The translations under genes were made by a program, and so were the position numbers. DNA of 63,474 nt, filler included, from Dugesia japonica (Eukaryota), in the NCBI GenBank assembly GCA_001938525.1. It is 5 parts of 5 records of this genome, joined end to end, with 100 filler letters (N's around TTAATTAATTAA, not from the genome) between each part and the next. Parts side by side here need not be neighbours in the genome. Positions count along the whole stretch, not along the records: positions 27,646 to 43,452 come from MQRL01513608.1; 4 more parts are not named here. The stretch is one strand, 5' to 3'. Positions 1-61,500 of the stretch are shown in pieces. The notes under the pieces were generated by a model. The model did not search any database. It saw only the letters and a program-made list of their open reading frames with translations, and was not told the origin of the DNA. Positions within the stretch are counted from its first letter, which is position 1, and each line of letters opens with the position of its first letter.

Positions 1-328
1 CCTAGCCAGTGGTTAGACCCTGACGTCTTGAATTCAATGTAACTGTCAATTAATAATAAATATTTAATTATTAGCACTGACTTGACTTTCCGTATAAATA
101 AAAGAAGTTAAATAATAGAATTGGTTTAGATTGTCTAAACGTTACTGGGAAAATAGAGAACCCGAACCAAAGGTTTATTGGCGGGTACTTCCCATCAAGC
201 GAGAAGTCAACCACAATAAACTGAAAACCTACCTTAGGGACGGTAGGGTATTAAATTCTTGAAAGGGTTCCACTGAGGACTGTTTTTTCCCCAGTCACAA
301 CATTTTCCACTCAGGTGGAACCCCAACA
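1..328 (+). mobile_element. 3' end of a long LTR (TGTTGGGG...CCCCAACA family), including the last 13 codons of the LTR-encoded ORF
   Basis: Ends in CTCAGGTGGAACCCCAACA and is homologous to the reverse complement of 40751-41030. Reads PSQWLDPDVLNSM* (1-42), followed by AATAAA at 55-60. Confidence 0.85.
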
Positions 329-440
329 GTAATATGGTCTATGATATTTAAAGGTTCCATAGTAATATGGTCTCTGATATTTAAAGGTTCCATAGAAATA
401 TGGTCTATGATATTTAAAGGTTCCATAGTAATATGGTCAA
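328..440. repeat. 33-bp minisatellite, ~3.4 copies (AGTAATATGGTCTATGATATTTAAAGGTTCCAT)
   Basis: Direct tandem units visible, ending just before an N gap. Confidence 0.9.
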
Positions 441-14135: not shown

Positions 14136-14849
14136 ATGGGTGAGATGGATCTGGATGAATATCTGAAAACGAATGTGAAATCGTTCGATCTAATTGGATT
14201 CCGGGGCCGAGAATTTGTATCTAAACTTATTATTCATATGGAGAAAAAAGCTATCAATAAAAAAGAACGAATTCATATCGATCCGAAAATATCTCATATT
14301 GGCATTGTCATTGAGGGTAAAGATCTATTTGAATTCCATGAATCACTATCAGAAACTACCAACCATACGGTTGAAGCCGGAAAAGTCTATGTTTTTGAAT
14401 CTACAGCAACAGGACCAATTATCGATAGGGTGAAAGATGTTTTCGGAAAATATTTTTTCGGTGCACAAATCAGAGATTTGAAAAAAGTTATCACCGGTTA
14501 CAATGGAAATATTTTTCATTCTCAAAAACTCTTTGAAGTTAATCGTGATCAAATAAAAGATTTCGTACTATTTATCGAAGAATATAATTATCGACCATAC
14601 GAAAGGTCATTTCGATCTATGTTTGGCAATTTTTGTCGTTGTCTTGAAATTCATGAAAACACAGACAGTGTATTTTGTTCGGAATTAGTTACACTCGCCT
14701 TAAAGAACTGTGGAATTTTAAATGAAAATGTAAATCCAGAAATGGTGGTCCCATTAGATTTCTATCCTGATCCAAACAATGAAGGAAAAACTCTTGATAT
14801 CGATGGAGAAATTCCTTTGATTTATGACAACCCGGTCCTCTTAAAATAA
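14136..14849 (+). CDS. Permuted papain-like NlpC/P60 (YiiX/YebB/poxvirus G6R-type) cysteine hydrolase, 237 aa, intronless
   Basis: Uninterrupted ATG-TAA ORF with an AAAT-ATG context. DLIGFRG, SHIGIVI (catalytic His), VFES and FCSELV (catalytic Cys) occur in permuted His-before-Cys order, followed by P.DF. AATAAA overlaps the stop. Confidence 0.85.
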   Translation: MGEMDLDEYLKTNVKSFDLIGFRGREFVSKLIIHMEKKAINKKERIHIDPKISHIGIVIEGKDLFEFHESLSETTNHTVEAGKVYVFESTATGPIIDRVKDVFGKYFFGAQIRDLKKVITGYNGNIFHSQKLFEVNRDQIKDFVLFIEEYNYRPYERSFRSMFGNFCRCLEIHENTDSVFCSELVTLALKNCGILNENVNPEMVVPLDFYPDPNNEGKTLDIDGEIPLIYDNPVLLK

Positions 14850-17094: not shown

Positions 17095-21773
<4,679 letters not shown>

Positions 21774-27645: not shown

Positions 27646-30500
27646 TTAATGTTAAGAATAATGACAACACGTGTTTTATTTATAGCATTCTTGCTGTTCT
27701 TAAACAACATGAAATTTGACAAAATCGACATTGTGTTGCAAAATATAAGGATTATATGTCAGAGTTAGTATTTGAAGAGTTTAATATGCCAATGAAACTT
27801 GTAAATATCCCAAAATTTGAGAAACAAAAGCCAGGATATGCAATCAAAATCTTTTTCTGGAACTCAGAATCAGTTCAAGATAATGATAATATAATCATGA
27901 AGCATCCAAACTTGGATATTATTCACCGGTCAAAAGTGGAAGATGGGCAGAAAATTAATCTCTTGTTGCTTGAAGATGGAGAAAATTACCATTACACTGA
28001 AGTGATAGATTTAAATAGACTTATGAATAGAGACATAAAAGAAAATGGAGTGCAAATTTGATTAATCTGGTGTCAAAATTGGTTAAATGGATTCAAGAAT
28101 AATATTGCTTTGGAGACACATAAAGCACTTTACAGCAAAATGCAAACTGGTACAACTATGTACAAAATGCCAACAGAAAAAAAATTAATATTCAAAGATT
28201 ATTCAAAAACGATGACTCCATCTTTCGTGATTTATGCTGATTTTGCGTCAGTTTTAGAAAAGGATCTAATTTATCATCAAAAACATATTCTAATTTCAGC
28301 TGGACTTTTGTTGGTAAATAATTATACCAACGAATTTAAATACAGTCAATTTATTAGACCAGACTGTGTTTTGGAATTTTTATTGAAATTACAAGAAATT
28401 AGTAAGGACATCGTATATCCATATTATATGGAAAATAGCAAAAAGGATATGGAAATAACTGTAGAAGAAGAAATGTCATTCAAAGCAGCAATATCTTGTT
28501 ATTTATGTAACAAATCAATAGTAAAACTAGTTTGTGACTATGATCATTTTACTGAAAATAAATAGATCCAGCATGCAGTAAGTGTAATATAAGCAGAAAA
28601 ATTAAATATGAATTGCCTGTTGTATTCCACAATCTGAAATGATATAATCTCCACCATATTCTCAAGTATGATCTCAATCAATTCCCAGAATGAATATCTC
28701 ATTCCTACAATGTATTCCTACAACTCAAAAGTTCTTATGTCTTACTGCACATGCATCAAAAAACAACAATAAAATTCATTGGCTCATACCAGTTCATTAA
28801 TTCATCATTAACTTCTGCAGTCCAGTCAATTAAAACTACTCCTTTGACATCAAAAGAATTTAATGGTGATCGTATTATAAAGTCAAAAGGGATTTTTCCA
28901 TATGATTTCACCACAAGCTTAGATGTTTTAATAGAAGCAATGTCAATGCCACCGAGATGGGATCATGTGAGTGAACAAGAATATGTCAAAGCAGTTCAAA
29001 TATTGGAGATCACTAATTGTAAAAACCTACTGGATTATATGATGGTTTATCTTAAGCTCGATGTCTTTTTGTTGGCTGATTTCTTCCTACAATTTTGATA
29101 CAAGTCTATAGCTGACAATAAGTTGGAACCATTGAATTTTCTCAGGATACTAGGCATTTCATGGGCATCTGCATTGATGACTCTTAAAGAACCAATTGAA
29201 TTATTAACGGATAATTACATGTATAGATTATTTGAAGGGGGTATTAGAGGAGGGCTCACGTTTGTTAACAAATATTTTGTCAAAAGTGATGAAAACACGG
29301 ATATTCTATAAATTGATATTAATAACTTGTATGGGTGGGCTTTAAGTGAAAAATTGCCCTATAAAATCTTTGAGTGGATATATTCGGGATTGGATGCAAT
29401 ATTAGAAGAATGCAGAACATGTGATTTATATTCGGTATCATATGGTTATACTATGGAAGTGGATATAGTAATTCCGAAAGAATTACATGAATATTTGAGT
29501 GATTTACCTGTCGCAGTCAAACATCAAAGTCCTCCAGAATCAAAGGTGAAGAAAATATTGCTGACACATTATCTAAAGCAGAATTATGTGGTACACTGGA
29601 GGATACTATAAATGTACTTACAATTAGGTGTACATGTTACAAAAATACATAGGGCTGTGAAATTCAATCAGGACTACATCTTTAAAAATTACATTGATGA
29701 GAACACAAAAAAAACATCAGAGAGTAAATCGCATTTGGATAAAACTACTATATGACGTTGAATAATAGTCTTTATGGTAAAATAAAACAGTGGAAAATTT
29801 ATAGAAAACGTTAAATTTAAGATTATGTAACTCAGCTAAAAGACTTATGACTTATGTTTCAAAACCATATTTAAGAGAAAACAATCAAAATTGATGATGA
29901 TTTGATTGCTGTTATACTAAACAAGGAAATAGTTTGCTTAGATAACCCAAGTTACATAGGGCAGATGGTGCTCGATCTTAGTAAACTAAGAATGTACCAA
30001 TTACAATGTGTAAAACTTGAGAAATATCGAAAGGAGCAGAAATGTGAGATTAGTATAGTAGCTGGTGACATAGATAGTTTCTTTTTAGAAATTAAAAATA
30101 TAAAGCTTGAAAAATTGTTAGGACTCATAGTACAAGATAATCTGTTAGATACATCAAATTATAGGGAAAGTCATCCATTATTTAGAAACAAATTGAACTT
30201 GGTTGTAGGAAAATTTGAGGATGAGAATAAAGGTAAGAAATATGTTGAATGGGTTTTTCTTAGACCAAAATACTATAGTCTTCTTAGTGAAAAGGAATCA
30301 ATGAAGGTAAAGGAATTATATTAAAAGATAGTGACTAAACATGCCAGTCAAATCGTGTTTGATACAACGAAAATAAGAGAATATTAGTTAATCAGTTCAG
30401 AATAGGGACTATAAATCATCAGATTTATAGTTTTATGAGTTCAAAATTAGCACTTATAAATAATGACGACAAAAGAGTATGGGTAGCCAAGAACTTAAGC
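27646..30500 (+). pseudogene. Protein-primed family B DNA polymerase (Polinton/Maverick/adintovirus-type) with an embedded endonuclease-VII-like zinc domain
   Basis: NVKNNDNTCF, VIYADF (ExoI), CYLC..DYDHFT..ACSKCN, VVFHNLK (ExoII), KGIFPYD, YLKLDV (ExoIII), GIRGG, DINNLYG (A), NNSLYGK (B), AGDIDS (C), GKFEDE, LRPKYYS. Many stops. Confidence 0.93.
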
Positions 30501-35352: not shown

Positions 35353-35898
35353 ATGTCTAACGAAAGGTCCAACGAATTCTATTTACGTTATTATGTTGGA
35401 CACACAGGAAAATTTGGTCATGAATTTTTAGAATTTGAATTTCGCCCTAACGGTTTATATAAAATTTATATTAAATTTAGATTAATTTATATTTTACTTT
35501 AGGTAAATTACGGTATGCTAATAATTCCAACTATAAAAATGACACAATGATTCGTAAAGAAGTAGAAACATTTATTATTATCAAAGAAATTTAATTTACT
35601 TTAGGTATTTGTAAATACAGCTGTTTTAAAAGAGCTGAAAAAAATTGTTGAAAGCAGTGATATAATGAAAGAAGATGACAAATCTTGGCCTTTACCAGAT
35701 CGAGTCGGAAGACAAGAATTAGAGATTGTTAATGGGGATGTACATATTTCTTTTACCACATCTAAAATAGGGTCATTATTAGACATTAATCATAGCAATG
35801 ATCCAAATGGTCTCACTATTTTCTATTATTTGGTTCAAGATTTGAAATGCTTAGTATTCTCTTTGATTGGTTTACATTTCAAAATAAAACCAATTTAA
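35353..35898 (+). CDS. mago: Mago nashi, exon junction complex core, 150 aa. Exons 35353-35452, 35503-35561, 35605-35898
   Basis: [43 protein letters not shown]...[19 protein letters not shown], with two GT-AG introns (50 and 43 nt). Confidence 0.97.
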
Positions 35899-39220: not shown

Positions 39221-40988
39221 ATTTTTTATCATTTTAATTCCTCTTTATTTTTATTTTTCATTTTAATTCTTCAATTGCTGATATTTCTGCTCATTTTTCC
39301 ATTTAAAATCTTCTTTTTCATTTTAAATCCTCCTTAGTTCCTCACTTGAAAAAATTAATTTCTTTTTTATTTTTTAATTCTTCAAAAATTGTATTTCGTT
39401 TTACAATGATGATTAACCTCATAATCATGATCTTATTTGAAAATATATTACTAAATAAATCACAATAAAAATTTCTATCTGTTTTTGTTTAATTTTTAAA
39501 AATATAAAAACAATTAGAATTATTTCTTATTTAAAATACTTTACTAGAATATTTCATAAAAACATTAAAAAACTGTAATGTAATAGCAAACCTTTTTCAC
39601 TTGGCAATTTCTTTTTGCATATGTTACATTCGAAAAATGTGTTTCTTGATCTTGTACACATTTGTGATTGGATGTGACGTCACTCTCGGTTATTTTTAAA
39701 AATCTTAAAAATTAATATTGAAGCACTCATTTTTATAGAGAAAAACTTTTGGTTGAGTTAATAAAACTATCATTAGGCTGTTGTTATTTTATGTGAAAAA
39801 ATAAATAATAATTTTTTGTTTTAGTAAACTTTTGGTTTTGAAATTTAACACTTTATTTAATTCATTATGCATTAGTTTCATTACTAAATATTTTTCTTGA
39901 TTTTTTATTTATTGATTTATTTTTATTTGATAGATTTGATATACTCATAGTAAAATTTTTCTTTTACTTGAACTTGTATTAATTCAAAAGAATTTGTCTT
40001 GATATTAAAAACATAATCTCCATAATAATTTTTTATATATTGTTGAGATTTTTCATCAAAATAATATTTTACGTGAGTATATCTTATCAAATTTGTATAA
40101 TAAAAAAGTCTATTTACTTAATTATTCCATCTTATTTCAGCTATCATAATTCTAGTTTTAGTCACAGTTATGATTTTAATGCTTTATTATTTCAATTATT
40201 TTTTTATGATTTTAATTTTGTTTGGCTCATTATTAAATTAAACTTTTACTTGTATAGTTAACGGTATTGATATTTTCATGTCATATTTTAGTGTCTGAAC
40301 ATGATCCGTATAACCATATCATATCTTATTATATAACCGTTTTATCTTAGCTATTAATGCTCGTGTGAATGTTAGTATCTTGATAAGCGTTGTAATATGA
40401 TCCTTTCACGCTGAATATTTTGTACGTGTTATGATTTATAACTTAGCTATGATAAGTATAGACAGAGAGTAATGCGTATGTTAATGATTATCGTACAGAG
40501 TAACAACATTAAATAATACATTATTTTTCGATTTAACTTTTATGGTGATACAGTAAATTGATTTGTTAGTGTGAATTGGGTATATTTTATAATTAACAGG
40601 ATCGTATTGAATACGACGATCCAGTAACATATNTCAACTATTTTGGAGAAAGTTACTGCCGAAGGAACCGATAATAATCACTGATGGATTCATCACGACA
40701 TGATCCACCAGCTGAATGCTAGGATTTGTTGGTTAGGGAATCAATAGTATTGTTGGGGTCCCACCTGAGCTGAGAGAAAAAATAACGTGGCTGGGGAAAA
40801 CAGCCCTCAGGGGAACCCTTTCAAGAATTTAGCTTACCGCCCCTAGGGTAAGTATTCAGTTCATGGCGGTTTACCTCACTCTTAATGGGAGGTGCACGCC
40901 CACAAACCTTTGTATTTGGGTTCAATAATTTCCCTTATTTTACACAAATTTAAACCAATAATTCTTGAAACATTTATTAATATAGCAG

Positions 40989-41371
40989 TTATAGGTTGTT
41001 TAGCACGCTAGGGTCTAGCCATTGATCTGGGTCGTTTATTGTAAAATTGAAGGCGGCGACATCGTCGTCATCGTTACAATGAATCCAAGCTGGATTCCCA
41101 ATCTGTCGGGAAAGGTCAGAGATGTACTGTTTTAAGNAGTCTATTTTTCTTAACAGTAACTTCTTATTCTCTGCCTCGAGGGCTTTGGTTTGGGTTGCCA
41201 AGTCATTTTGCTTACGAACTAACAAATCCAATTTTTTATGAGTTGATTCCTCTGGTCAAGGTGCTTAAGAAGAGCTTGTTCTGTTTTGCGTTTCAAGTGT
41301 CGTTCTAATAGTAGACGGCGCAGGATGCGGTGACACCTCCTCAAACTAGTTGGAAACACGATACGAGGCAT
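40989..41371 (-). CDS. LTR-encoded ~127-aa basic/leucine-zipper/acidic-tail protein (one frameshift in an A-run at ~41232-41237)
   Basis: ATG in AAAAATG context. ORFs 41219-41431 and 40989-41231 join by a -1 shift, and the Leu heptad register continues across it. C-terminus conserved in the copy at 1-42. AATAAA at 40973-40978. Confidence 0.65.
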
Positions 41372-41690
41372 TTTTAATTGTAAGATTTCTGCAACGGTTA
41401 ATTGTCGGGGATAATAATTGATCGAAACCAAAAATATATAATTTGATGTGGTCTTCTTCTCGCACCTTTGTAGATAATAAAATTAACTTAAGATAAGCTG
41501 AGTTGCAATTTTACTTGGGTTTTCAGTTTAATTTCTACCGAGACGAAATTGATTTTCTTCTAGTAATTGGATTGGAGAGTGACTTTCTCAAACTGAGTAA
41601 ATATAATGAAAATTTTTCTTTGGTAGTTTCTACACAACTATTAATTAATGAAAAAATGTTTTGTTTTTTCTTGGTGAAATCCGAGTTCTC

Positions 41691-41890
41691 TTTTATAGTG
41701 TTTCTTGATACAACCCGGCATCATTATCATTGGGTGGTATTTTTGTCTCAAAATTCCAGTGTTTTATTGGTGCTAGTGCCATAATTCTAGAATTTTCAAA
41801 GAATTTTAGAACTCTGATTGGTAAGTATTTTGAGAGGGCCATGTGATAATTCTTTCTTTGTGTTATTTTTATTTTTAGGCCTCCCATTGG
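41691..41890 (-). promoter_or_regulatory. LTR promoter: three CCAAT boxes and TATAAAA
   Basis: CCAAT at 41886-41890, 41817-41821 and 41766-41770; TATAAAA at 41691-41697. Equivalent motifs in the 52579 copy (TATATAA at 53247). Confidence 0.65.
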
Positions 41891-43559
41891 TCCAATCTTG
41901 TGGACCCTGCAGCAGCCCTCTGGAAGGTGGTAAGTTTTTCTTTCTAGTAATTTTAGTTGCATTTTGATATTCTCGTCCTATATTTTCTTGTCCGGCTTTT
42001 TTCTGATTTCCCTGAGTGAAATTATTCGGATAAAACGAATTTTTTGTTAATTTCACTTCTTTTTTTATTTAAAATTAATTAATATTTCTCCTCTGTTAAT
42101 TGATTGCTTTTATTCCGATTTTCTCGGTTTTTATTATTATTTAATAATTCTTTTTAATTCTGCTACCTACATGGGTGGTTTTATAACACTGAGTTCGTTG
42201 AACCCGTCTTCGATGGTATTTTATTTTTCTTTACTGATTATTTTCCGTTACAAATTTCCCAAATTATAATCGCTTCCTTCTTTGAATTCCATTACACGTG
42301 AGTTTATGGGTTTTACTGTTCATCTTTGCCGATTCTGGATTTTTTGGTTTTATTATCTTTCTTCACAGGTGTTTCACCCCAACAGTATTAATATCACTAC
42401 TGCTAGCATGAAAAAAGATTACGAGCATTAGAGCAATAGGAGCGGGGCAGGAGCAACAACAAAGGTGGAAAGCAGTAGAATTAAGCTGGTAAAAGATGCA
42501 GCTGCACATAAACGAAGGAACAGCTGGTTAGGCAAAACCTATTGCTGTAAGAACGTGTACTCAGTCTTATGATTCAATGCTCTTAGATCTCGTGAAGACG
42601 TTGGTGGATTATCGAGTACTATTATAGCCAGTGTAAGGTTACTACGTAAGTCCAAAGAGTCGGCATCATACCGTTGAAGTGAAGAAAGATGAAAGGTCAT
42701 TATAGTTAGGATTATTCCAAACCCCAATAATTGGGTGTACAAAGGATGCTGTAATTAAATAAATTTTCCGACGTTATACCTAGTCATGAGTTGTTTTTAT
42801 ATTAGAAAGTCATAACAAAAACTAAAACCAACAAAGAGGATTTGATCAAAGATGGGTTACCCCAAAGATTCGTTGGATCCAGGAAAATACGATGAAAACA
42901 TACGAAGTGCTTAAATTTTTGTGGTTTCTAGGACACCATACTTAAAACAGCTTACTAAAGGAACCAATAAATATAGAATCAAAAAGAGCNNNNNNNNNNN
43001 NNNNNNNNNNNNNNNNNTAAACATCAAAAGCCTAGAAGCCAAACAAATCACTATTTTATAACTGCAAGCATTAAATGTTTATTTTAAACGACTCATACAA
43101 CATATTGAGTATACAATAATACAAGATCTTAAAATAATTAGGCAATTGTTTTAATTAACTTCAGATAAAACCAATATTAGGAGAATTAACTAAGCATCTT
43201 TGATTTAACAATAAATATCGAGACTAAAATTGAGAAACCAAGGAAGACCTAAAAGGTCAGCGAAGCTAATAAGAGTACAGAAGAACACCAACAAATTTGA
43301 TTACAAGAGTACAAGTACACTGAAAAAATCAAATCAAATACTAGTAAATTAGAACGCAGAAAAGACGATGACTGCTTGAAACAATTATTCTGTTAAATAA
43401 ATACATCTTAAAAAAATCTAATTAAAATCATAAATATATATATATATATATANNNNNNNNNNNNNNNNNNNNNNNNNNNNNNNNNNNNNNNNNNNNTTAA
43501 TTAATTAANNNNNNNNNNNNNNNNNNNNNNNNNNNNNNNNNNNNNNNNNNNNTAATAAT

Positions 43560-45159
43560 ATTGTTCCTCCCCATCTGATTTGTTGGATCAGATGTTGGAC
43601 GCGTTACACAGGAATGGATATTTTAGCTCGATCGATTTGGGTTATGCATATTACCAGGTAGAACTAGACAAGGATTCTCAAGAGAAAACCGCTTTTTCGG
43701 CAAAACACGGACAATACTGTTTTACTAGGATGTCATTTGGAATAGCAGCAGCNNNNNNNNNNNNNNNNNNNNNNNNNNNNNNNNNNNNNNNNNATCTGAA
43801 GGGAGCAATGATATACATTGACGATATATTAGTTTTTTCAAAGGATGAAGCGAGTCATTAAATTGTAGTAGATGAAGTATTGAAACGGATAATGGATACG
43901 GGGTTAAGAGTTTATCCAGAGAAATGTGATTTTCTAAAACAAGAAATTAAATTTCTGGGACATATTGTGAGCGCAAATCGTAAATTTATTATAGGTTATG
44001 TGGCTAAATCTAGAAAGTTGGAACAATTTTGCAGCGGTGCGGATAATACGAAATTTATTTGGAATGAAGAATTGGAAGGAATATTTCAAGGATTGAAAGT
44101 TGCGTTAATGTCGGCACTAATACTAGCATTTTCTGACTTGAACAATAAATTTACACTGGATGCAGATGCTAGTTTTGATACAATTGGGGCTGTTTTATCC
44201 CAGACTGACAATATGTGAAGAGAGAGAATTATTGCGTATGGATCACATGCAATGACCAGTCACGAGAAAGGTTATTGTACCACAAGGAAGAAATTGCTAG
44301 CAGTATATTATTTTTGGAATTTTTTCAAGAATTATCTTTATGGGAAGCGAATTAGGCTCAGAACGGACCATAAAGTCATCACGTTCCTGTTAGGAACAAA
44401 GAAACCAGTAACGCCACAATTTCAGACGTGGGTGAACTATTTGAGCAGCTTGGACATAGAGTTGCTTTATAGAAAAGGGGAATTGCACAGTAATGCAGAT
44501 ATGTTATCACGACCTGAGTGTGATAATTGTACTCAGTGTCAGATGTATCATGAAAGTGCAGCAAAAGGAAGATTAAGACAAGAATGTTACAAACCGTAGC
44601 TCCGGTGAAAATCGAGGAAGACATAGATAGAAATTCAGAATGGTGTAATAAGAAAGTATCAAGGATACACAAACTGTTGTGTCACGCTGGGGTAGAAAAG
44701 TCAACAGATTACATTAAAAGACAATGACCAAAGATTAAATGTGGAGACAAGATCAAAGAAGTGATTCAAAGTTGCGAACATTGTCAGAGAACAAAAAATT
44801 GGACGGGCTTGACAAAGAAAGTGGTAGTAAAAACAGAAGCAGGTCTTCCAGCAGAAACACTGTGGATAGATATATGTGGACCATGGAGAGAAACATCAGG
44901 AAAGAAAAAATAAAGTAGGCGAGAAAACAGACGAAAACAACAATAAAGATGACGAAAGGAAGAACATGACTAGAAGACACTTTCAGGTTGGGCAGTGGGT
45001 CTTAGTTAGAAGTGAAAGGGGCAATAAAAATAAAGAAAAATTTATTGAATTTTACCGAGTGATAGAAAAGCGACACGAGATGAGATACATGTTACAAAAT
45101 GAACAGGGAAAAAAGATAGACAGGAATGTGGAAGTTAAAAATTTTCTTAAAAGAGGGGA
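43560..45159 (+). mobile_element. Gypsy pol remnant (RT, RNase H, partial integrase) ending in a polypurine tract
   Basis: FSSIDLGYAYYQV, IYIDD, DADASFDTIGAVLSQ, LRTDHK, HSNADMLSR. PPT AAAAGAGGGGA at 45149-45159. Confidence 0.92.
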
Positions 45160-45472
45160 TGTGAGGAATATATGACAAGTGAAAATTTTTGTTGTTTAAA
45201 TATTCCAAAAAATATATAAAACAGTGTTAATTTTTAAATAGTAATTTTTAGGGTAATTAAGAGTAGCAGATCAGTAGTAAGAAATTATTGTAATTTGTTA
45301 ATTGTTGTAATTACTTGTAACTGTGTTAAGTTTTATTAAATTGTAAATTTTATTCGGTAANNNNNNNNNNNNNNNNNNNNNNNNNNNNNGAAGTTAATAA
45401 ATCTTTGATAAATAATTTTAGTTATTATGTTAGATTCAAATTTAGGAAATCTGGAGTTATGTATGCCTCACA
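45160..45472 (+). mobile_element. Gypsy 3' LTR (~313 bp including an N gap)
   Basis: TGTGAGG...CCTCACA termini immediately after the PPT, with internal TATATAAAA and AATAAA. Confidence 0.85.
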
Positions 45473-45845: not shown

Positions 45846-48585
45846 ATGGAAATTGCAGAAAGTATAGCAGTGGCTAACATGGCGTTCCACGCAAGTGCGA
45901 CAAAGGACATGCTCATACAAGCTTGGATGCCAAAAATATTTCATAAAATAGATGGCGTTAAGAAGTTTATAATCGAATGCCGAAAGTATTTTTATGCAGC
46001 AAACGTATTCAAAAGTACCAGAAAACTGGTAATTGTAGGCCTACTTGATGATAAATTGAGGAGAAAATTCGAAAAAACCGATGATGGACATGGTTACGAA
46101 GATAGACTAAGACGTAAAGGATTTTGAAAGCATATTGTCATACAGACGACAAGAAGAGGATGTTGACAGCTTTGGGGAAGAAATTGACAAGATGGTTGAG
46201 TTACTGATGGCATACAACGATAAGGAAGAAATGAGGAAAGAACTTCTTATGCATAGTTGTAATAGGGGCGAAATTAAGAAAAATGTGGTAATCCAAAATA
46301 TTAAAGATTCGGACGGCATTATTACGCTTATGTGAAGCATTGATAGAATTGAGGATAAAGAGTCAATAAATGCAATCCGTCCCAGTTACAGAGGAGCCCT
46401 AATGAACAATAACCAACAATACAATAATTTCAAACGCCGAGAGGATTACCAGACAAGCAGAAATCCAAGGCAGATGGACAACAAACAACAAGAGATATTA
46501 TGTTACGGTTGCAATAAGCAGGGCATATAAGAAAAGAATGCCTATCAACACCCATAAGAAAATGTTTCGGCTGCGGATCAACCAAACACATAAGGCGTTT
46601 TTGCACGAAAATAAAATGCCAAAAGTGTACAATTACTAGATATCGAGCAAATGAATGTAAAATGTCAGAGGAAAGGATTCAACAAATAAGTAGACTGGTT
46701 GAGTGTGATAGACGAAAATGGGGTAATAAAGTGGAGTTAAATGATAAAAGGTTAACACAGAAAGAAACATCAAGACGGAACAATGGACGAAATACTATAA
46801 ACACAGTCAGTGACCAATCACCAAACAGAGAAATATATGAAAACGAATACGATGATGACGACAGATTTGGAAGCAAATACAGTGAAAACAGGCACCCAAA
46901 TTGGAGAGCTCCGTCAGAAGACGAGATGATATGAGCCTTATACTAAACACAATGGAAAGTATTACTCGCAACAGAGCCTGCGCGGTGAATACTGTAAGCG
47001 TTAGTGTAAGAGACGATAGAAGTAAAAAGATAAACAGCGAGGATAAAAATAGAGAAGTGGAAATAATGACAGTTAAAAAATGGAAAAGAGTACAGATATC
47101 AGATATGATAGAATGCAAGGTACCCCCAGTATTGAGATGGAAATTTAAGATAAGCCATTCTATTGTATGTTGGACACAGGAGCGAAAATTAACGTGATGA
47201 GCGACAGAGTTCTTAAGGAACTCAGTAATATATTAATACAAAAAGCAGATGTAAAATTACGATGTGCTAACAATAATATACTGGAAACGCTAGGGCAAGT
47301 GTTGGTTGAGACATCTATCGGACAACAAAGAGAAATGGTTAAAAATACGATAGCAAAACAGGTGTGTCCAGACATCATAGGAGGAATTTAGCTACAGCAA
47401 CAATTCGGCTTTGAGTAACAAAGAAGATCATTGGAAGAAAATGAGACACATTGGTGTTTTAGAAGCAAAATTTGGAAGAGTCATATCAGACGAAAAACGG
47501 GAGCAGCAGGTTTTAAAGATAATTCAATCAAACAAAGAAGCAAGAAAGATAATAGTAGCTAATAGACGAGCCTTCGTGGTTGACGATTGAGATATTGGAT
47601 GCAACATGCTCGTGAAGCATAAAATAATAACGAAAAGAGAGTCAATCAACATAAGGCCATGGCGTTAACTGATAAACTTAGAAGACGAAATTGAAAAAAC
47701 ACTACAGAACTTAGAACGGCATCCTCATGAAATTTAATTCAAGCTGGATTATTCCACTAGTTTGCATATGGAATAAAAAAAAGAAAAAGCTGAGATTATG
47801 CTTAGACTTTTGCCAGCTGAACCAATTATCGGAGAGACAAGCATATCCAATGCCAAACACAGAGGAAATGCTAGATAGATTAAACGGAGCCCGTTCTTTC
47901 AACACAATTGATCTGGGCAATGCGTATTATCACTTGAAATTGGAGGAATCGTCACAGGAGTAAACAGCGTTCTCTACCAGAAAAGGTCAATACTGTTTCA
48001 CGAGGATGCCGTTTCAGATTGCAGCAGAGACAGGCGAATTCCAGGAATTGATGACAAACGTACTGGGAAGCACATCTGGAGCTATGGTATATATGAATGA
48101 TATTTTAATTTATTCGGATAATGGCACGGACCATTTCAAGACGCTGGACACTGTACTTAAAGAAGCAGCAAATGCTAGATTACGTATCAACCCCAAGAAA
48201 TGCAGTCTAGAAGTTTCTAGGACATATCTTGGATGAAAATGGCATCCGAACAGATCCTACTAAAATAGAAAGTAGGAAAGAAAAAACTTCGAGAGGCCAA
48301 ACTGTACAAAACAAGTCAGAAGCTTTCTAGTTATGTGTAACTACTACCGGAAATTTATCAAGGGATATTCTGCAAAAGCCAAAGCATTAGAAGAATTATG
48401 TGGCAGAAACAAAGATAAGCTAATATGGACACCGATATGCAACGAGGCATTTCAAGAATTGAAACAGGCTTTAATAAAACACCAGTGCCAGGTTTTCAAG
48501 ACAGAAATAAAGATTTCATATTAGACACTGATGCAAGTTTTAATAGCATCAGGCCTGTGCTATCACAACTGAATGAGAAAAAGAT
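45846..48585 (+). mobile_element. Gypsy gag-pol remnant (gag with three CCHC knuckles, protease, RT, start of RNase H)
   Basis: CYGCNKQGH, CFGCGSTKH, MLDTGAKINV, RLCLDF, IDLGNAYYH, VYMND, LDTDAS. Confidence 0.92.
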
Positions 48586-48589
48586 TTAA

Positions 48590-48679
48590 AATTAAAGAAT
48601 TTGAAAATGTTTTGGCGAACCAGCTATCATCTGTTCACGAACCATCAGTGGTTCGCGCATCACAGTTTGTGAACCCCTG
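48590..48679. mobile_element. hAT-Charlie-type terminal fragment
   Basis: Ends CACAGTTTGTGAACCCCTG (reverse complement CAGGGGTTCACAAACTG). Confidence 0.6.
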
Positions 48680-49059
48680 ATTTAAATATTAATATTTAAT
48701 TGTTTTTTTAATTTAAATATTTATGAACTATTTTATTTTGTGTTTTGATTGTTACATATATACTGCTTTTCAAAGTTTTGCCCAATTACCGAGTACAAAA
48801 GTGAATATATTTGAAAGTTTTTCAATAGAATTTCTGATAATGCCGCTTGCCGCTTTTGCGGTTAACTCCTTGGATGCAATAGCTTTTCAACGACAGGTTT
48901 ACATCGCCATCTGATTAATGTTCATCATTTGAAAAGAAAGATAAAGAAATCCGCGCAATTTGCCAGTGATAGTACATCTTAAAATCAAAAATTACATACT
49001 ATCCATCAATTTTTGTTACCAAAAAACTTGGAAATTGGAATAAATTGTCACTACACTCA

Positions 49060-52000
49060 AACTTGCTTTCGTACAGAGAATAAAATGGTATCAAAGATGC
49101 TAGTTATTTGTTCAGATAACAAAAAAGTTGAAGAAGAGGTTACTTTGCGGAAACGGCAGAATATAGAAGAAATTGAAGAAACAATAACGTTAGTCGATTG
49201 AGTAGAGAGAAACAGAGATCCGGCCAATGCAGTTAGAAGTTAAGCGAGAGTTTCAAATCAAAATTATCAGAAAACTGTTAATAATATAGTGAATAGACAT
49301 GTAGATCAAAGAAAGGAAAAACGAATTATTGAATGTTGGTTATGTCAAAAGATCGGTTATAATTAAGCAAATTGTCCGACGAAAAAAGTGTTAGAGTGTT
49401 GGACTTGTCATAAAAAATGGCATATAAGTCAATATTGTCCAAATAAAAAACCAACAAATGCTTTGGTTGTGGAAAGGATGGCCAAATTAGAAAGTTATAT
49501 GAAGAAGTGAGGTATAAACGATGTGTAAATGCTGTCATAGGGCAAGAGTACTGCATAAATTTGAAAATGAAAAGAATAAGTGAGAAATTTATGACTGCTA
49601 GCAGAATAAGAAATCAATATAGTCGAATACGTGCGATTGCAGATGAAGATGTCAATACAAACGATGCATATAAGGCAGTGTATGAAAGTGATTCGGAAAA
49701 GCAGTGCCCAAAGGTCAGGGCTCCATAAGTAGAGCAGTTTGTTGGAGACATCCATTATTAAAAAAAGTTAATGAATATCTTCAAAGGATAGAAAATTGGG
49801 ATGATATCGGGAAAGTTACAGAAAAAGTATACGAGTTCTTAGAACGGGAAAATTTTGAGGATGATACAAAAGAAGAATGGGTTGGAGCAATTGAAAAAGA
49901 AAAGAAAACAAATATTTTGTATCATAAATTCCATGGCAGACCAAGTGTTACGGTATCAATTCAAGGAAATAAAGTTGAAAGTCTATTAGATGCAGCGGCT
50001 CAAATTAACGTTATGACTTTGAGTTGTTTTAATAATTTACAAGACCTACATTTAGAAATGAGTGATGAAAGATTACGTTGTGCAAATAATAGTACATTTG
50101 AAATTGTTGGGAAAGTTAGAACTGGAGTGATAATTCATGAAGTTTGCAAAAATATTACTTTCTTAGTTAAAAGAAGAGTGACACCAGATCTGATTGGATG
50201 AACAGATATGCAGAAGACCTTTGGATACCAGCTTGTATAAAACGTCTATAGTAAACCGGATGAAAAAGTTGAAAATTACATTATTAATATTAAAGCAAAA
50301 TTTTGGAAACAAATTAAAAAAGAAGAGCGATTGACAAGAACCTTAAATACTTTGAGGATGAAAGACGTTGAACAGTTATTGAAAATAATTAGAAGTAAAG
50401 AAGCTGTTTTTATGGGAGATAAATAGGACGTAGGACTCACACATCTGACAAAACACAAAATAACTACAAGTGGTGAACCAATCAATTTAAAACCGTACAG
50501 GCAACCAATGAACTTAGAGGCCAAAATTGAAGAAGCTATTCAGAACCTTTTCGAGAATAATATTATCAGGAAATGCAACTCTCTATGAAATAACCCACTG
50601 ATTTTTGTTTGGAAAAAGGAAAAGAAGGACATAAGAATATGTTTGGATTTTAGACGATAGAATGCAGTAACAAAAAGGCAAGCATTTCCGATACTTAACG
50701 TTGATGAAGAAAAATAATTCAGTTCAATAGATTTTGGGAAATTCATACTATCAGGTCAAGCTCGAAGAAGAATCTCAAAAAAACGGCGTTTTCAAGGAAG
50801 CATAGACAATATTGTTTTAATAGAATGCCATTTAGTATCGCAGCTGCATCAGGTACATTTCAGAAGATGATGACAAAAATGGATGACGGAATCAATGGAG
50901 CCATTTTTTATCTCGATGAAATTTTGAAATTTTTGAACAATGAAGATCGACACTATGAAATAATTGACAAAGTATTGACGAAAATAATGTAGGCTGGTTT
51001 AAGAATTAATCCAGAAAAATGAGAGATTCTTCAAAGCGAAATCAAATTTGTTGGACACATAATTAGCAGGGATGGTGTCAGAACTGATCCGTCTAGAATA
51101 GAAACAATAAGAACATTTGGGAAACTTAATTGTGTGAAAAAAGCTGCCAAGTTTCTTAGGAATTTGTAATTACTACAGGAAGTATTTAGAAAATTATGCA
51201 AGAAAGTCAAGGATTTTAGAACAGTTGTTTAGCGGACCAAGCACCAAGAAATTAGAATGAACAGATGAAATAAACGATACCTTTGAGAGTCTGAAGAAAG
51301 CGCTAATGACTGCGCTTACATTGTGTTTTCCAAACATAAACAAAGAATGTTTATTAGATACAAATGCCAGTTTCGATACAATCGGAGCAGTATTGTCATA
51401 GAAAGATAAAGAAGGAAGAGAAAGAGTTATTGCCTATGGATAACACTCAATGACGAGTCATGAAAAGGGATACTGCATTACACGAAAGGAGTTATTGGCT
51501 GTGTATTATTTCTGTATTTATTTCAAACATTACTTGTACAGTAGAAGATTTACTCTTAGAGCAGATCATAAAGCTCTAATCTTTTGATGATGACGAAGAA
51601 ACCATTCACATTACAGTTCCAGACATGGATTATTTATCTGAGTAGTTTAGACATGGTTTTAGAATATAGCAAAAGAGTTCAACATAGTAATGCAGATATG
51701 TTATTTAGACCAAGATGTGAAGTATGTGTACAGTGTCAAATGTCACATGAAAATGCCAAACAAGGAAGATTAAAACAAGAATACTGAACACAATTGAAAA
51801 AGAAAAAAAAGACCAATCAACGATTTCTGAAGAAATTATATAATCAAGAAAATTAAAATTCCTATCACAAAATTCATGAAACAATAGAAGAAATACACAA
51901 ATTATTATGTCATGTAGGATTTGAGAAGGTGTACTTATATATGAGAAATAAATATATCGCAAAGAATTTGTGGAGCTAAATACAGAAGATAGTTTAAAGT

Positions 52001-52578
52001 TGTGAAATTTGTCAGAATACCAAAGTAATGATGACAGCAACTAAAGATAGGACAAAGAAGTTAGAAGCTACAGATTGGTTTGAAGTTATATTTACTGATA
52101 TATGTGGGCCAATTCGAGAAACAAGTGGACAGAAAAAATATATTCTTGGAATAATAGACCAGTACAGTGAATATCTAGTTCTTGTAATAGTGCCTAAACT
52201 AGACGAAGAAAAAATACGAAAAGCTAGATATTAAACTTCACTTTTTGAGTCCCTATCATCACAATGCAAACGGAAAAATTGAGAGACAGTTCAGGAAAAT
52301 TCGAGATTTAATTAATGCAACACTTCAGGAGAGAAGGACAACAGATTGGGTAGATATTTTACCCGAAACACAATTTACGATGAATGCAACAAAGCAGAAG
52401 ACGACTGAAAAGAGCCCAGCTGAGATCATATTTGGAAAGAAAATTAGCAGAGAAGAGTGATACGAGTCAGACGTTTCAGAGAGAAATAAGGAAAAAATTT
52501 CAGAAGTGACTACTAATAGAGAATTCAAAGTGGGCGATTTTGTACTCATCAAGGTAGAAACAAGAAATAAAAGCCAAG
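49060..52578 (+). mobile_element. Near full-length but degraded Gypsy gag-pol, interrupted in the integrase C-terminus by an LTR insertion
   Basis: Gag knuckles, LLDAAAQINV protease, RT (FYLDE), RNase H, integrase (TDICGP, SPYHHNANGKIERQFR). Confidence 0.92.
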
Positions 52579-53560
52579 TGTTGGGGTGAAACACCCATTA
52601 AAGAAGGAAAATAAACCCAAATCGGCAAAGAAGAACAGCAGGGCATTATAATGCCCATAAAGAAAACCAAAAAGAAAAACAATCATGATCAGGGAGGTCA
52701 TAATGGAAAAAACCAGAAAAAAAATACAATGAGAAACGGATACGACAAACCATATAAAATAAAATTAACCTATATCAATACTGAAATTAAAAAGAATTAT
52801 TAAATTCACAAGAAAAAATTAAGAAAACATTAAAGAAAAATAATTAATTAACAGAAAAATATCAATTAATTTTGAATTAAGAAAGAAGGAAAATTAGTTG
52901 AAAATCCGTTTTACCCGAATAACTTCGCTCCAGAAGATCAGAAAGAATCCGGGTAAGAAAATACAAAAAGAAAATATCAAGACGCATCGAAGATGCCAGG
53001 AAGAAAAAACTCATCACCATCCAGAAGTTTGCTGCAGGGTTTTCTTAATCGGGCCCATAAGAACTCTAAAAATATAATTAAAACAAAGACACAATTGTCA
53101 TGTGTCACTCTAAAAATAACTGCCAATTGCGGCACCAAAACTCAAAGAAAATTCTAGAAAATTGGCACTGGAACCAATAAAATCAGAAAATTTCAGTCTA
53201 AAAATAACCCACGAATCTGGAAGAAGTTGGGGTGCGCAGAAAATCCTATATAAGAACCCCGGAAGTTTAGAACAACAACAACAAAAATTTCTTATACGAT
53301 ATTGTTATTGAGTGATTTACGTGAAGTAACTTGGTAAAAGAAATCACATTAGAAACCTTTTCAAGCAGGATCGAATACTAAATTGATAAGTTTAAATTGG
53401 TAAGATCGAGACCACTGATAAGTTAATTAATCCGAATCATTACTAGAATTAAAGAGGAAATTAGTTCAACTACTCTAGAAGACCAATTTTCAATAGAAAT
53501 CGTTAGCCAGTTTGCCTGAAATCTACTCTCGTGTCAGAAATTAACCCGTTGCAGAACCAG
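52579..53560 (+). mobile_element. 5' part of the TGTTGGGG LTR family, truncated before its ORF
   Basis: Starts TGTTGGGGTGAAACACC and is colinear with the reverse complement of 42384-41389, including CCAAT, TATA and TTAACCCGTTGCAG. Confidence 0.82.
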
Positions 53561-56059
53561 TCTAATTGATAACCGAGTAAGGATTTGTTGTTCAAGATGT
53601 GTGCTATTTAATGAAAATGTTAATAGTAATTTAATAAATAAAATTTGATTCTATTTATCAAAAGTTTTAAATTAATTTTAGAAAAACATTAAATAGGAGA
53701 AAGTACACCAAATGTTGCGTCGTGTACCGATAATTCTCTGTAGACCTATGACCTTAATTATGCACACCTCACTTATAAACAAAGTACACAACTGATAGCC
53801 CTTGTTTCGCCCTGCATTGAAATTCACATAATAACTGAACCACTTCATTGGCAGTAAATTCTGGAGCATCTTTATTATATAATCAATTAACATCCGACAT
53901 AATTTCGTCAGCACTAGTCTTATACACCTCGCACTAACTCGTTTACAATGCATGCCTACCACGATATCCTCACACACGGAATACAGCAATCACCAGATCG
54001 CAACTATATGAGTTAAATTAATTCGTAATTGGTTTAACAACCTTAAAAGTGTTGTCAAGGGAGACATAAATAATCATGATTCAAATAATATTGTTTTATG
54101 AATATAATTTTTTATTGAACATGAATTTTTATTCAGTTATGCTTTTAGGATAGCGCTATTTAAAATCAGACCAAACTTTATCTATAAAATGGAATCGTTT
54201 TTTCTTCGAAATTGCAAAACCAAATATTCCGGTTTCAAAGGTTGTGAATAAATATCTATAGGAAATAACTGATTTACGTTGAATTGTATCAAAATTTTTA
54301 AAATTTCCGTCTAAGTCGTTTTATAAATTTGATAAGAAAAATATGAAGAGTATCGTTAGCGGAATGTATAAAATTATTAGAACAAGATTTGGTGTAGATC
54401 TAACAGTGTATAATAATTTATAGAAAATTTGTATCTATTATGATGTAGATTTTGAGATTAATGATGTTACCAAGAGTATGGCAAAATATCAAGTTGAGTG
54501 CAATAAAAACATTTTCGTTAAAAATATTATTCTCATAAAGGAGAAATGGTGGGAGCAGAAAATTCACTTAAAAGTGTTNNNNNNNNNNNNNNNNNNNNNN
54601 NNNNNNNNNNNNNNNNNNNNNNTTAATTAATTAANNNNNNNNNNNNNNNNNNNNNNNNNNNNNNNNNNNNNNNNNNNNTCTCTTCATTTTTAGATTTTTC
54701 ATTAAGTAGAATACTTATTTTCTTTTTTTTATTGAGATAACGTATTTCTTTATATTTGTCAAACGTTTCCTGATATACTTTATTAAGAGGAAAAGGTATA
54801 GGTTTATTTAAACCAAGATAACCGTTTTTTGATCCCGAATACTTTTGCGTTAGTAGAAATATATGCAAAAAGAAAAATGTTGCTTACAAAATTACATCCA
54901 CCTTTAGAAACATATCAAATGGAAAGAAATTGGAAAGACAAACATAAATTTTCATCAGAACAACATCACATTACATGGAAACCATTTGGAAAAGACTAGA
55001 TTTCTACACTTCACATTAAGAAATATTAATCAAAGAAAATAAATATAAAATCAATATAATTTATAATAATTAAAATAATTTACCAAATAAAATACAACAA
55101 AAATAAACAAATTCAATATTATTTCTATTTACCGTGAATCAATCATTAAGTTAAAGTTAATTGTAGAAACATTAAATAATTAACAAACAAAGAAGAAAAA
55201 CAATATTTTGATCGAAGCTTTTAATTTAATTAAATTTAATTTATTTAATATTTTTTTTCAAATAAATTAAATAAATTAAAATTGAAAATATATTTTATAT
55301 AAATAAATTTGTAATAAAAATTATTTGAAAATAGTAGATTTTTAGAAATATAAGTTAATTTTCAAATTATTTTGGCTACGTATGAAATATGTATTTTTTG
55401 AATAAACAAAATAAATAAATCGTTATTTTGTTTTAAATAAAATTAATAATCTATATATAATCCTTTACTGCCAAATATTATTTATTTATTAAATTATTAA
55501 TTATTAATTAAAATAATAATTGAGTTTCTTTGATTACTTTTACAAAAATTTATTTCATCGATAATATAATTTAATTTTAGAAAGCAAGAAAACCAAAATT
55601 CGAAGTAAGATTTATTTATAAATAAAATTATTAATGAAATATTTTGTTTAGTAAATCAGGGTGTACTATTTTATAATGGGAGATTTATTTACAATTGAAC
55701 ATAAGAAAAACATTTTATATATTTTTTAAAATTAATTAAATAATTTTTGAATCAACTTTTATTTTATTCTTTAATTAATTCTCTAATTATAATTTAATTG
55801 AATCTCTAATTTAAATTAGTTATAATTTAATTAATTGTCAACATGTCATGTGTAATTATCATTTTATTTAATCGCAGATATTACAACGCTTCTATCACTT
55901 TCTTTCTTTAAATAGTTTTTGAATTAAACAATATTTTAAATGAAAAATTATAAGTAGTTTAAAAATTAACATTTAAAAGTAAAATATAATTTGAAACTAC
56001 ATTTAAAGAGTTTTTCTTAAAAATTAAACATATTAATAAATTATAATTAAAATTAATTT

Positions 56060-59519: not shown

Positions 59520-61500
59520 ATTATGGTAAAAGATAATATTGGGAAATTCATCAAGCGGTGCGAAGTGTATCTTAAAGCTAAAAACCTCACCCAGATGAAA
59601 CAGCAGGGGAGATTAGTCTTTGGTTTTGCTAGATAAAGATTTGTTGGAAGAATATGCAAAAACGTTAAAAAAATTTGAAGGTTTTCAGACTCGTTTAGGA
59701 TGACATTTGTAAATTAGAAAGATATTATCAAAGATTTTCAAATTTTGATTAACTACACGAGTTAAAATGAATAGATTTAAATTTATTTTAAAAATCTAAA
59801 AAATGTAGTGGAAAGATTATTTACAAAAAAGGGATTTTACAAAAGAGAAAACAGGGCAAAACTCTAGAATACTACCAAAAAATAGTTTAAATATAAACAG
59901 ATGCAAAACTTTAAAATATTACTAAGGCAAAGGTATTATGAACAACCTAATAAAGATTAAATACTAACTTAAGTAAAAATGAAATATAATTGGGAAAATT
60001 AATAGAATAAAATAAAGTACCGTAAAGGAAATTTTTAAAAAAAACAGAAGTAAAACTAAAATACTAACCTGAGACAAAATTAAATATTATCGAAGCAAAA
60101 TTTTCCAGACATAAACAAAGAATTTATATTAGGCACAGATGCCAGTTTCAATACAATTGGATCACTATTGTTACAGAAAGATAAAGAAGGAAGAGAAAGA
60201 GTTTTTGTCTATGGATCACACTCAATGACGAGTCATGAAAAGTGATACTGCATTACACGAAAAGAATTATTAAAGTTTATTATTTATGTATGCATTACAA
60301 ACATTACTTGTACGGTAGAAAATTTACTCTTAGAACAGATCACAAAGCTCTAACTTTTATGATGACGACGAAAAAACCAATTACGTTGCAATTCCAGACA
60401 AGGATTAATTATCTGAGCAGTTTAGATATAGTTTAGGTATATAGAAAAGCTATTCAACATGATAATGTAGATATGTTATCTAGACCAAGATATACGATAT
60501 GTGTACAATGTCAAATGTCAAATGAAAAAACTAAGAAAGGGAAGATTAAAACTAGAATAGTTAAAAAGGAAAAAGAAGATCATTTAAACATTTCTAAGGA
60601 AACAGATTTGATCAAGAAAACGAAAATTCCGGATGATAAACTACATGAAACTATAGAAGATATGCACAAGTTATTATGTCATGCCAAAGTTGAAGAGGTG
60701 TACGAATATTCGAGAAACAAATATATTCCACATAATTTGTGGAGCCAAATACAAAACATAGTTTGTACTTGTGAAATCTGACAGAAGACCAAAGTATTTA
60801 CAACAGCAACTAAAGAGAAGACAAAGAGTTTAGAAGCTACCAACTTCTTTGAAGTGATATTCAAATATGTGGTTCTAGACAAGACTAGGAAACCATACGA
60901 AAAGCTATTTTTGAAAAGTGTATTTTGAGATTTGGATATCCGAGACAGATAAGACTCAATTCTAGAAAAGCTTTTGAATCCAGAGTTATGAGAGAATTTT
61001 CACTGAGACTAGATATTATACTTTGCTTTTTGACTCCCTATCATCATAATGAAAACAAACTAATTGAAAAACTGTTTGATTTAATTTAATTAATTAATTA
61101 GATTTAATTAATGCAACAATTCAGGAAAAAAAGACAACATATTGGGCAGATCTTTTACCGGAAATAGAATTTACAATGAACCTAACAAAACAGAAGACGA
61201 TTGGAAAGAGACCGGCTGAGATTGTTTTAGGAAAGAAATTAGCAGTTGAAAGTGTTACCTTAAAAAGATAGACCTTAAAAAACATTTCATACGTGTATAC
61301 TAAAAGAGAATTCAAAGTGAGCGATGTTGTACTCATCAAGGTAAAAACAAGAAATAAACGTCAAGACAGATTTGAAGACCATTATCGAATAATTTAGAAA
61401 ATTCATGAAAGGTGGTATGCAGTACAAAAAGAAAATGGACAGCGATTAGAAAGAAATGTCGAAAAACTTAGGAGGTTTCTTACGAAGTGAGATATGCGGA
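59520..61500 (+). mobile_element. Gypsy remnant: gag fragment, RNase H and integrase
   Basis: TDASFNTIG, LRTDHKAL, MLSRP, HKLLCHAK..CEIC, TPYHH, LPEIEFTMN. Degenerate PPT/LTR start near 61485-61500. Confidence 0.88.

Follow-up and report, generated by a model that had tools for sequence, protein, structure and literature searches.

The DNA analyzed here is a window of 63,474 nt from Dugesia japonica, and positions are given along that whole stretch. The question raised by positions 40989–41371 (minus strand) is whether an LTR in this genome contains a protein-coding gene of its own and, if so, what kind of protein it specifies. An initial annotation had proposed an LTR-encoded protein with a bZIP-like basic/leucine-zipper/acidic architecture and, by analogy with HBZ and Meq, a role as a dimerizing transactivator or decoy.

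A Coding Sequence inside a Solo LTR

The LTR that contains the segment, its flanks, and its relatives in the window are as follows.

40751–42384, minus strand: solo LTR of 1,634 bp (8-bp inverted ends TG...CA and flanks)
40747–40750, no strand: target-site duplication, left copy, GTAT (flank inspection)
42385–42388, no strand: target-site duplication, right copy, GTAT (flank inspection)
40751–40955, minus strand: conserved LTR 3' end, likely U5 (74–83% identity to the end of the related LTR at 1–328)
1–328, plus strand: related LTR, 3' end, including the final 13 codons and stop of the ORF at 1–42 (sequence matching)
52579–53600, plus strand: 5' part of a related LTR, within the integrase tail of another gypsy element (sequence matching)

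The TG...CA ends carry short inverted repeats and are bordered by a 4-bp target duplication, within the 4–6 bp required of an LTR. The element has many dispersed, diverged copies, and promoter and poly(A) signals are present. No retrotransposon internal genes adjoin it, and no internal region of this LTR family was found within the 63,474-nt window. The two other LTR pieces of the window match it at 72–75%. In the piece at 52579–53600 the promoter, the ATG-free leader, and an acceptor-like block are kept, and the similarity stops at approximately the ORF start; neither a relative of the ORF nor a 3' end was found after its leader. This copy is either cut off there or represents a subfamily without the gene. 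A 91-aa ORF at 53678–53953 is unrelated. The neighborhood and the LTR ends suggest that the family belongs to Ty3/gypsy.

The window is AT-rich (GC 17–37%). Two intron-split host genes, for a DDX42-like DEAD-box helicase and for mago nashi, have exons at 18341–21370 and 35605–35895 (both plus strand). Decayed and partly nested Ty3/gypsy pol fragments appear at 8681–10770 (minus), 43559–45175 (plus), 47149–52578 (plus), and 60101–61500 (plus); they carry protease, RT, RNase H, and integrase, and none is linked to the ORF-bearing LTR. A reverse-transcriptase fragment unlike the gypsy ones, with a weak match to RVT_1 and possibly from a LINE, is found at 3785–4506 (plus). An intact single-exon ORF of 237 aa at 14136–14849 (plus) has 11 relatives at E ≤ 1e-5 (best 60% identity), and two of the five relatives that were scanned weakly match the permuted papain-like peptidase C92 family. 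Broken ORF pieces at 27720–30324 (plus) gave no match in a Pfam scan; by eye they resemble a polinton-type DNA polymerase. A short tandem repeat of ~33 bases occupies 328–438 (plus), directly 3' of the related LTR end. Near the 3' end of the solo LTR, a 38-base motif at 40793–40831 is common to many other elements. RNA reads that match this motif continue into unlike sequence, and its contig depth greatly exceeds that of the remaining LTR. Several LTR families may have conserved it as a signal for integration, packaging, or processing.

The peptides of the initial annotation were located at 41371–40989 of the minus strand, where they are split over two reading frames that had been joined without mention.

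41237–41371, minus strand: ORF, first frame, residues 1–45; predicted basic amphipathic helix and first heptad leucine (translation, family differences)
41231–41237, minus strand: frameshift in a short homopolymer run (translation, contigs)
40989–41236, minus strand: ORF, second frame, residues 46–127 and stop; predicted heptad helix, second short helix, and acidic-aromatic tail

The frame that begins with the ATG at 41371 covers the basic stretch together with L44, the first of the heptad leucines, and closes after 50 codons at a stop at 41221–41219. Leucines L51, L58, L65, and L72, the LKQYISDL stretch, and the acidic tail are all in the second frame, in which an N at 41138 masks codon 79. 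Among 32 of 2,087 pieces, three contigs bridge the frameshift by at least 31 letters on each side, and all three show one gap relative to the window; a length difference at this site is listed in all four sequencing runs. The break near 41237 thus appears to belong to this copy or to its assembly. The frameshift had been overlooked, and the single continuous protein described earlier is not encoded by this copy; the copy at 40989–41371 is dead, and its product would be only a stub of 50 residues.

Selection on the family was assessed using 40 of the 147 listed differences, 32 of which are inside the ORF; the four runs share one species label and were counted as a single source. Silent changes account for 23 of the 32 differences, compared with 34% expected when transitions and transversions are matched (p 1.2e-5). 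Third codon positions hold 20 of the 32, and no new stop arises in the frames of the initial annotation. In the two shifted frames the silent counts over the whole ORF are 4/31 and 8/32. The same pattern is obtained on each side of the break: 11 of 12 differences are silent in the first frame (0/12 and 3/12 in the others) and 12 of 20 in the second (4/19 and 5/20 in the others). The silent share is weaker in the smaller list from run X7 (5/10). In the copy at the window start, 9 of the 13 final residues are identical, and 6 of those 9 are specified by a different codon.

At 80% likeness, the summed contig depth in run X1 has a mean of 3,830 within the ORF and of 102 immediately upstream; the leader is therefore much less conserved than the ORF. 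Three DNA runs yielded 749, 653, and 635 contigs over the 541 bases surrounding the ORF, most of them less than 95% alike, which indicates a family with many diverged copies; the contig depth on this region is not a copy number. A gene of ~127 codons, contained entirely within the LTR of this multicopy retrotransposon family, is under purifying selection, and the excess of silent changes, found in the correct frame both before and after the break, bears out the earlier claim that the LTR encodes a protein. That the pattern is instead a product of chance in a leucine-rich translation of LTR DNA is highly improbable and already largely refuted: the copy is broken, database relatives are absent, the RNA cover is close to zero, and leucine makes up 18% of the residues, but chance does not account for that excess of silent changes in the correct frame of each half, for conservation that falls off at the start codon, or for the silent codon changes in the second copy.

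No description of this ORF was found in the literature searched; Repbase or Dfam may contain an entry for the family. The available portions of three articles on planarian elements (PMC6431247, PMC8532177, and PMC11410931) mention no such ORF. The ORF is an accessory gene in an unusual place that has apparently gone undescribed so far.

Signals for a Probable Transcript within the LTR

The signals that surround the ORF are listed below in the direction of the minus strand.

41729–41896, minus strand: five CCAAT boxes preceding the TATA box, four of them sense and one reverse (shuffles, alignment with a related LTR)
41691–41697, minus strand: TATA box (aligned with the TATA box at 53247 of a related LTR)
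41372–41690, minus strand: leader of 319 nt without ATG, likely 5' UTR and possibly intron-bearing (shuffles)
41389–41394, minus strand: splice-acceptor-like site in a short block common with a related LTR (the frame stays open over the 17 nt that separate it from the ATG)
40973–40978, minus strand: AATAAA, a poly(A)-signal-like hexamer 10 nt past the stop (sequence inspection)

The promoter had been called CCAAT-rich, and this was confirmed: five sites, counted on either strand, fall within LTR positions 400–700, a number reached by 2 of 2,000 shuffles, and the related LTR at 52579 retains at least two of the boxes. We infer that the TATA box at 41691–41697 is the LTR promoter, which would place the ORF in a long R region; a placement in U3 with an internal promoter is possible. 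An ATG-free length of 319 nt was reached by 20 of 5,000 shuffles and by 4 of 356 stretches of the window. In the related LTR at 52579, 341 bases after the TATA box are free of ATG (6 of 5,000 shuffles). An AATAAA is also present in the related copy at the window start, at 55–60, 12 nt past the stop. The order of CCAAT boxes, TATA box, ATG-free leader, ORF, and AATAAA suggests a promoter-leader-ORF-poly(A) unit inside the LTR, and on this arrangement it is likely that each LTR makes a short mRNA of its own.

Loose contig ends accumulate at 41370 (13, 12, 11, and 5 contigs in the four runs) and resemble a pyrimidine tract with a splice acceptor placed immediately at the start codon. Together with the acceptor-like block at 41394–41389, they suggest that the true family protein may differ at its N-terminus, which may be longer or may begin from a split start codon.

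Raw reads from three RNA-seq runs, of which 6–25% each was read, were matched at 88% likeness to 2,301 bases; the runs contributed 2, 56, and 7 reads, most of which, with few exceptions, fall on the 38-base motif at 40793–40831 that is common with other elements. Over the ORF itself, in these portions of the three runs, a single bin of one run reaches an RNA depth of 0.86 and all others are at 0. The ORF is also covered by contigs from runs X7 and X9, which may be DNA, and no RNA record is present among the listed holders of the LTR. The near-absent RNA cover fits silencing and provides nothing positive for expression.

The Predicted Protein

Single-sequence AlphaFold2 models of the two halves, folded separately, are helical up to the break on each side (pTM 0.44 and 0.29). 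A helix is predicted over residues 7–44 (mean pLDDT 72) in the first half. The second half is predicted to contain a helix at ~47–77 (pLDDT >90), a second helix at 81–91, and a loose tail; the gap between these two helices coincides with the X codon and may be an artifact. Arg and Lys account for 9 of the 19 residues in 11–29. No membrane segment was found in the ORF protein (best 19-residue hydropathy 0.46), and neither the nuclear signal K-K/R-x-K/R nor a leucine-rich export motif was matched in it. An LxxLL motif at 17–21 was set aside, since it is expected by chance at 18% leucine.

The proposed basic/zipper/acidic architecture is borne out at its two ends by net charges of +9 for residues 1–45 and −7 for residues 93–127. 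All five heptad leucines are present in this copy when an X is read at the break, and one of the five is reached only across the frameshift. Such a run was obtained in 196 of 20,000 shuffles (four leucines in 1,488 of 20,000) and in none of the 205 stop-free stretches of at least 60 aa in the window. At L51, however, ~85–90% of the family depth is valine (1715/2015, 1482/1660, 1262/1413, and 60/67 in the four runs). The further L-KQYISD-L is also present as described, but L80 and L87 are offset by one residue from the register of the first run. The 'a' positions of the heptads are L, Q, T, N, and K, so that four of the five are polar and one is hydrophobic; the e positions (I, V, A, E, and L) are mostly hydrophobic, and no g-e' charge pairs are present. 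By general coiled-coil rules, these 'a' and e residues would fit a broader bundle better than the dimer of a bZIP.

In bZIP proteins an invariant Asn and Arg precede the zipper with the spacing N-x7-R/K-x9-L. This spacing was not matched for any candidate first leucine, and no Asn occurs in residues 1–41, in agreement with the earlier remark that the invariant Asn is missing. The Pfam bZIP families were matched by neither half nor by sub-pieces, in scans of the halves taken apart, which lowers the sensitivity. Membership among the bZIP factors is thus not supported, given the spacing, the Pfam result, the mostly polar 'a' positions, the lack of a g-e' pattern, and the valine at L51 in the family; the protein resembles a bZIP factor in outline only.

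A match to a gag, capsid, or other structural protein, which would speak against the proposed regulator, was sought in Pfam, PDB sequences, and viral folds, and none was found. The PDB sequences gave five and two weak matches for the searches made, none to bZIP or gag, and the viral fold library gave two, at E 2.7 and 5.2. When the second half was compared with proteins of near length, no candidate was obtained; comparison of the first half with longer proteins gave 18 candidates, none at E 0.1. The sole HMMER match among 1.84 billion representatives (E 2.4e-4) was a bacterial-type repeat protein of 1,607 aa and was rejected as chance. A generic coiled-coil match in NCBIfam (E 0.043, 12.8 bits against a cut-off of 350) was also rejected. 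The tail and the first half were searched in the ESM Atlas, where nothing at or above 0.9 was found for the tail and no usable match for the first half, and none of 424 pattern matches in metagenome contigs was confirmed. Judged by these searches, the ORF protein is without a relative, of known function or otherwise, in the protein collections covered.

Function and Relation to Known Systems

The reading that we favor, tentatively and at somewhat less than an even chance, is that the protein regulates the element's own transcription: it would be a nuclear protein with a long coiled-coil helix and no DNA-reading bZIP, made from a short LTR-internal mRNA. The 5' LTR and every solo LTR would be able to make this mRNA, which would start and end within the LTR. 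The basic helix would provide nuclear entry and contact with nucleic acid or a partner. The heptad helix would form oligomers, and its hydrophobic residues at d and e point to a bundle broader than the bZIP dimer. The acidic-aromatic tail would serve for activation or for cofactor binding and in this way feed back on the CCAAT/TATA promoter. Each of these functional steps is a matter of inference.

Solo LTRs are usually seen as non-coding promoter relics. If the LTR is the whole gene, solo copies could supply the regulator in trans after loss of the core, and repeat-masked annotation would miss it. A more extensive form of the proposal is doubtful. In this form a complete gene occupies the R region of the LTR, and hundreds of solo LTRs are expression units for a coiled-coil regulator, which would act as a feedback switch between short and full-length RNA or would rewire host transcription; the start codon would be made by splicing in most copies.

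The layout also raises the question of how the full-length RNA passes the ORF and the poly(A) signal that its own 5' LTR contains. The upstream ORF and AATAAA would be expected to cut off or block gag-pol RNA, so full-length RNA would need to pass them, and a protein that acts on RNA could serve this need. Such a Rev- or CERV-like factor would be made from a short or spliced transcript, oligomerize through its heptads, and bind the element RNA through its Arg-rich helix for poly(A) read-through or export. It is unlikely, but the splice-acceptor-like features at the ORF start and the Arg/Lys-rich helix of residues 11–29 (9/19) are consistent with it. An acidic-aromatic tail is more typical of activators, the export-signal pattern is absent from the ORF protein, and the RNA folding of the LTR 3' end at 40751–40955 is no better than that of shuffles (z −0.63), so that no structured RNA element stands out there. 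CERV itself has a potential leucine zipper, originates from a spliced RNA, and is required for export, but it is a protein of 517 aa with two further globular domains (PMC10309623, available in part).

A comparably small probability is assigned to a helical adaptor with no regulatory role, which would bind Gag or particles, limit copy number, or counter piRNA or chromatin silencing. Long helices are generic enough for such a protein, and short mRNAs from solo LTRs could supply it in trans; in planarians, piRNAs strongly target LTR elements (PMC8532177, in the portion available). Gag, capsid, and viral-fold likeness is absent, however, and the basic start and acidic tail suit a nuclear regulator at least as well.

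Quite improbable is a decoy of the HBZ type, a zipper that heterodimerizes with host bZIP factors (C/EBP, ATF, and Jun) and redirects or blocks them. The predicted helix appears continuous from the basic part into the heptads in the separately modeled halves, this copy has five heptad leucines (1% of shuffles) and one Asn at an 'a' position, and the promoter is CCAAT-rich. HBZ and KSHV K-bZIP are also without the consensus bZIP Asn and Arg, a feature that the ORF protein shares with them; Meq retains both residues, and the Meq analogy is therefore not sustained (PMC7412551, available in part). Against a decoy, no Pfam bZIP match was obtained and the PDB sequence matches at E up to 10 include no bZIP chain; four of the five 'a' positions are polar, the e positions are mostly hydrophobic, and g-e' charge pairs are absent; and L51 is valine in most of the family depth. 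AP-1 and C/EBP palindromes are unmatched in the LTR, where the one TGACG is inside the ORF and not in the promoter. As described in the accessible part of the same source, HBZ, K-bZIP, and Meq resemble the present protein in being encoded by an element and in having heptad leucines after a basic stretch. HTLV-1 HBZ is antisense and has a C-terminal zipper with a classical leucine run (PMC7412551), whereas the ORF is sense to the LTR promoter. The protein differs from both HBZ and Meq in its central heptads, its polar 'a' positions, and the one leucine that is not kept in the family.

The gene would bring an animal example to the few accessory proteins known from retrotransposons. Coding sequence in or overlapping an LTR, as here, is known from MMTV sag and HIV nef, which are located in the U3 of enveloped retroviruses and have membrane or cytoplasmic products. 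Unlike these, the present ORF follows the TATA box, and its product has no membrane segment. The additional ORFs of the plant and fungal LTR retrotransposons Grande, RIRE2, Retand, and Boty are likewise conserved orphan accessory ORFs whose origin and function are unknown, as reported in the portion of PMC7264820 at hand. CERV of the C. elegans Ty3/gypsy element Cer1 is similar as an accessory protein with a potential leucine zipper; it is nuclear and made by splicing (PMC10309623, same portion).

The nearest layout is that of sORF1 of the Drosophila MDG1-group Ty3/gypsy elements 412, Mdg1, Stalker, and Blood, as described in the part of bioRxiv 10.1101/2025.03.14.642691 that was available. 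No database match links the two proteins, and the likeness is one of layout. MDG1-group sORF1 specifies ~110 aa, its short transcript ends right after it, and its product is nuclear. It is located outside the LTR, in the interval that separates the 5' LTR from gag, with sORF2 following it, whereas the present ORF is inside the LTR. Both are small sense ORFs near the 5' end of the element, under purifying selection and with an early poly(A) signal, and the sORF1 layout is a precedent that was counted in favor of a nuclear regulator made from a short transcript.
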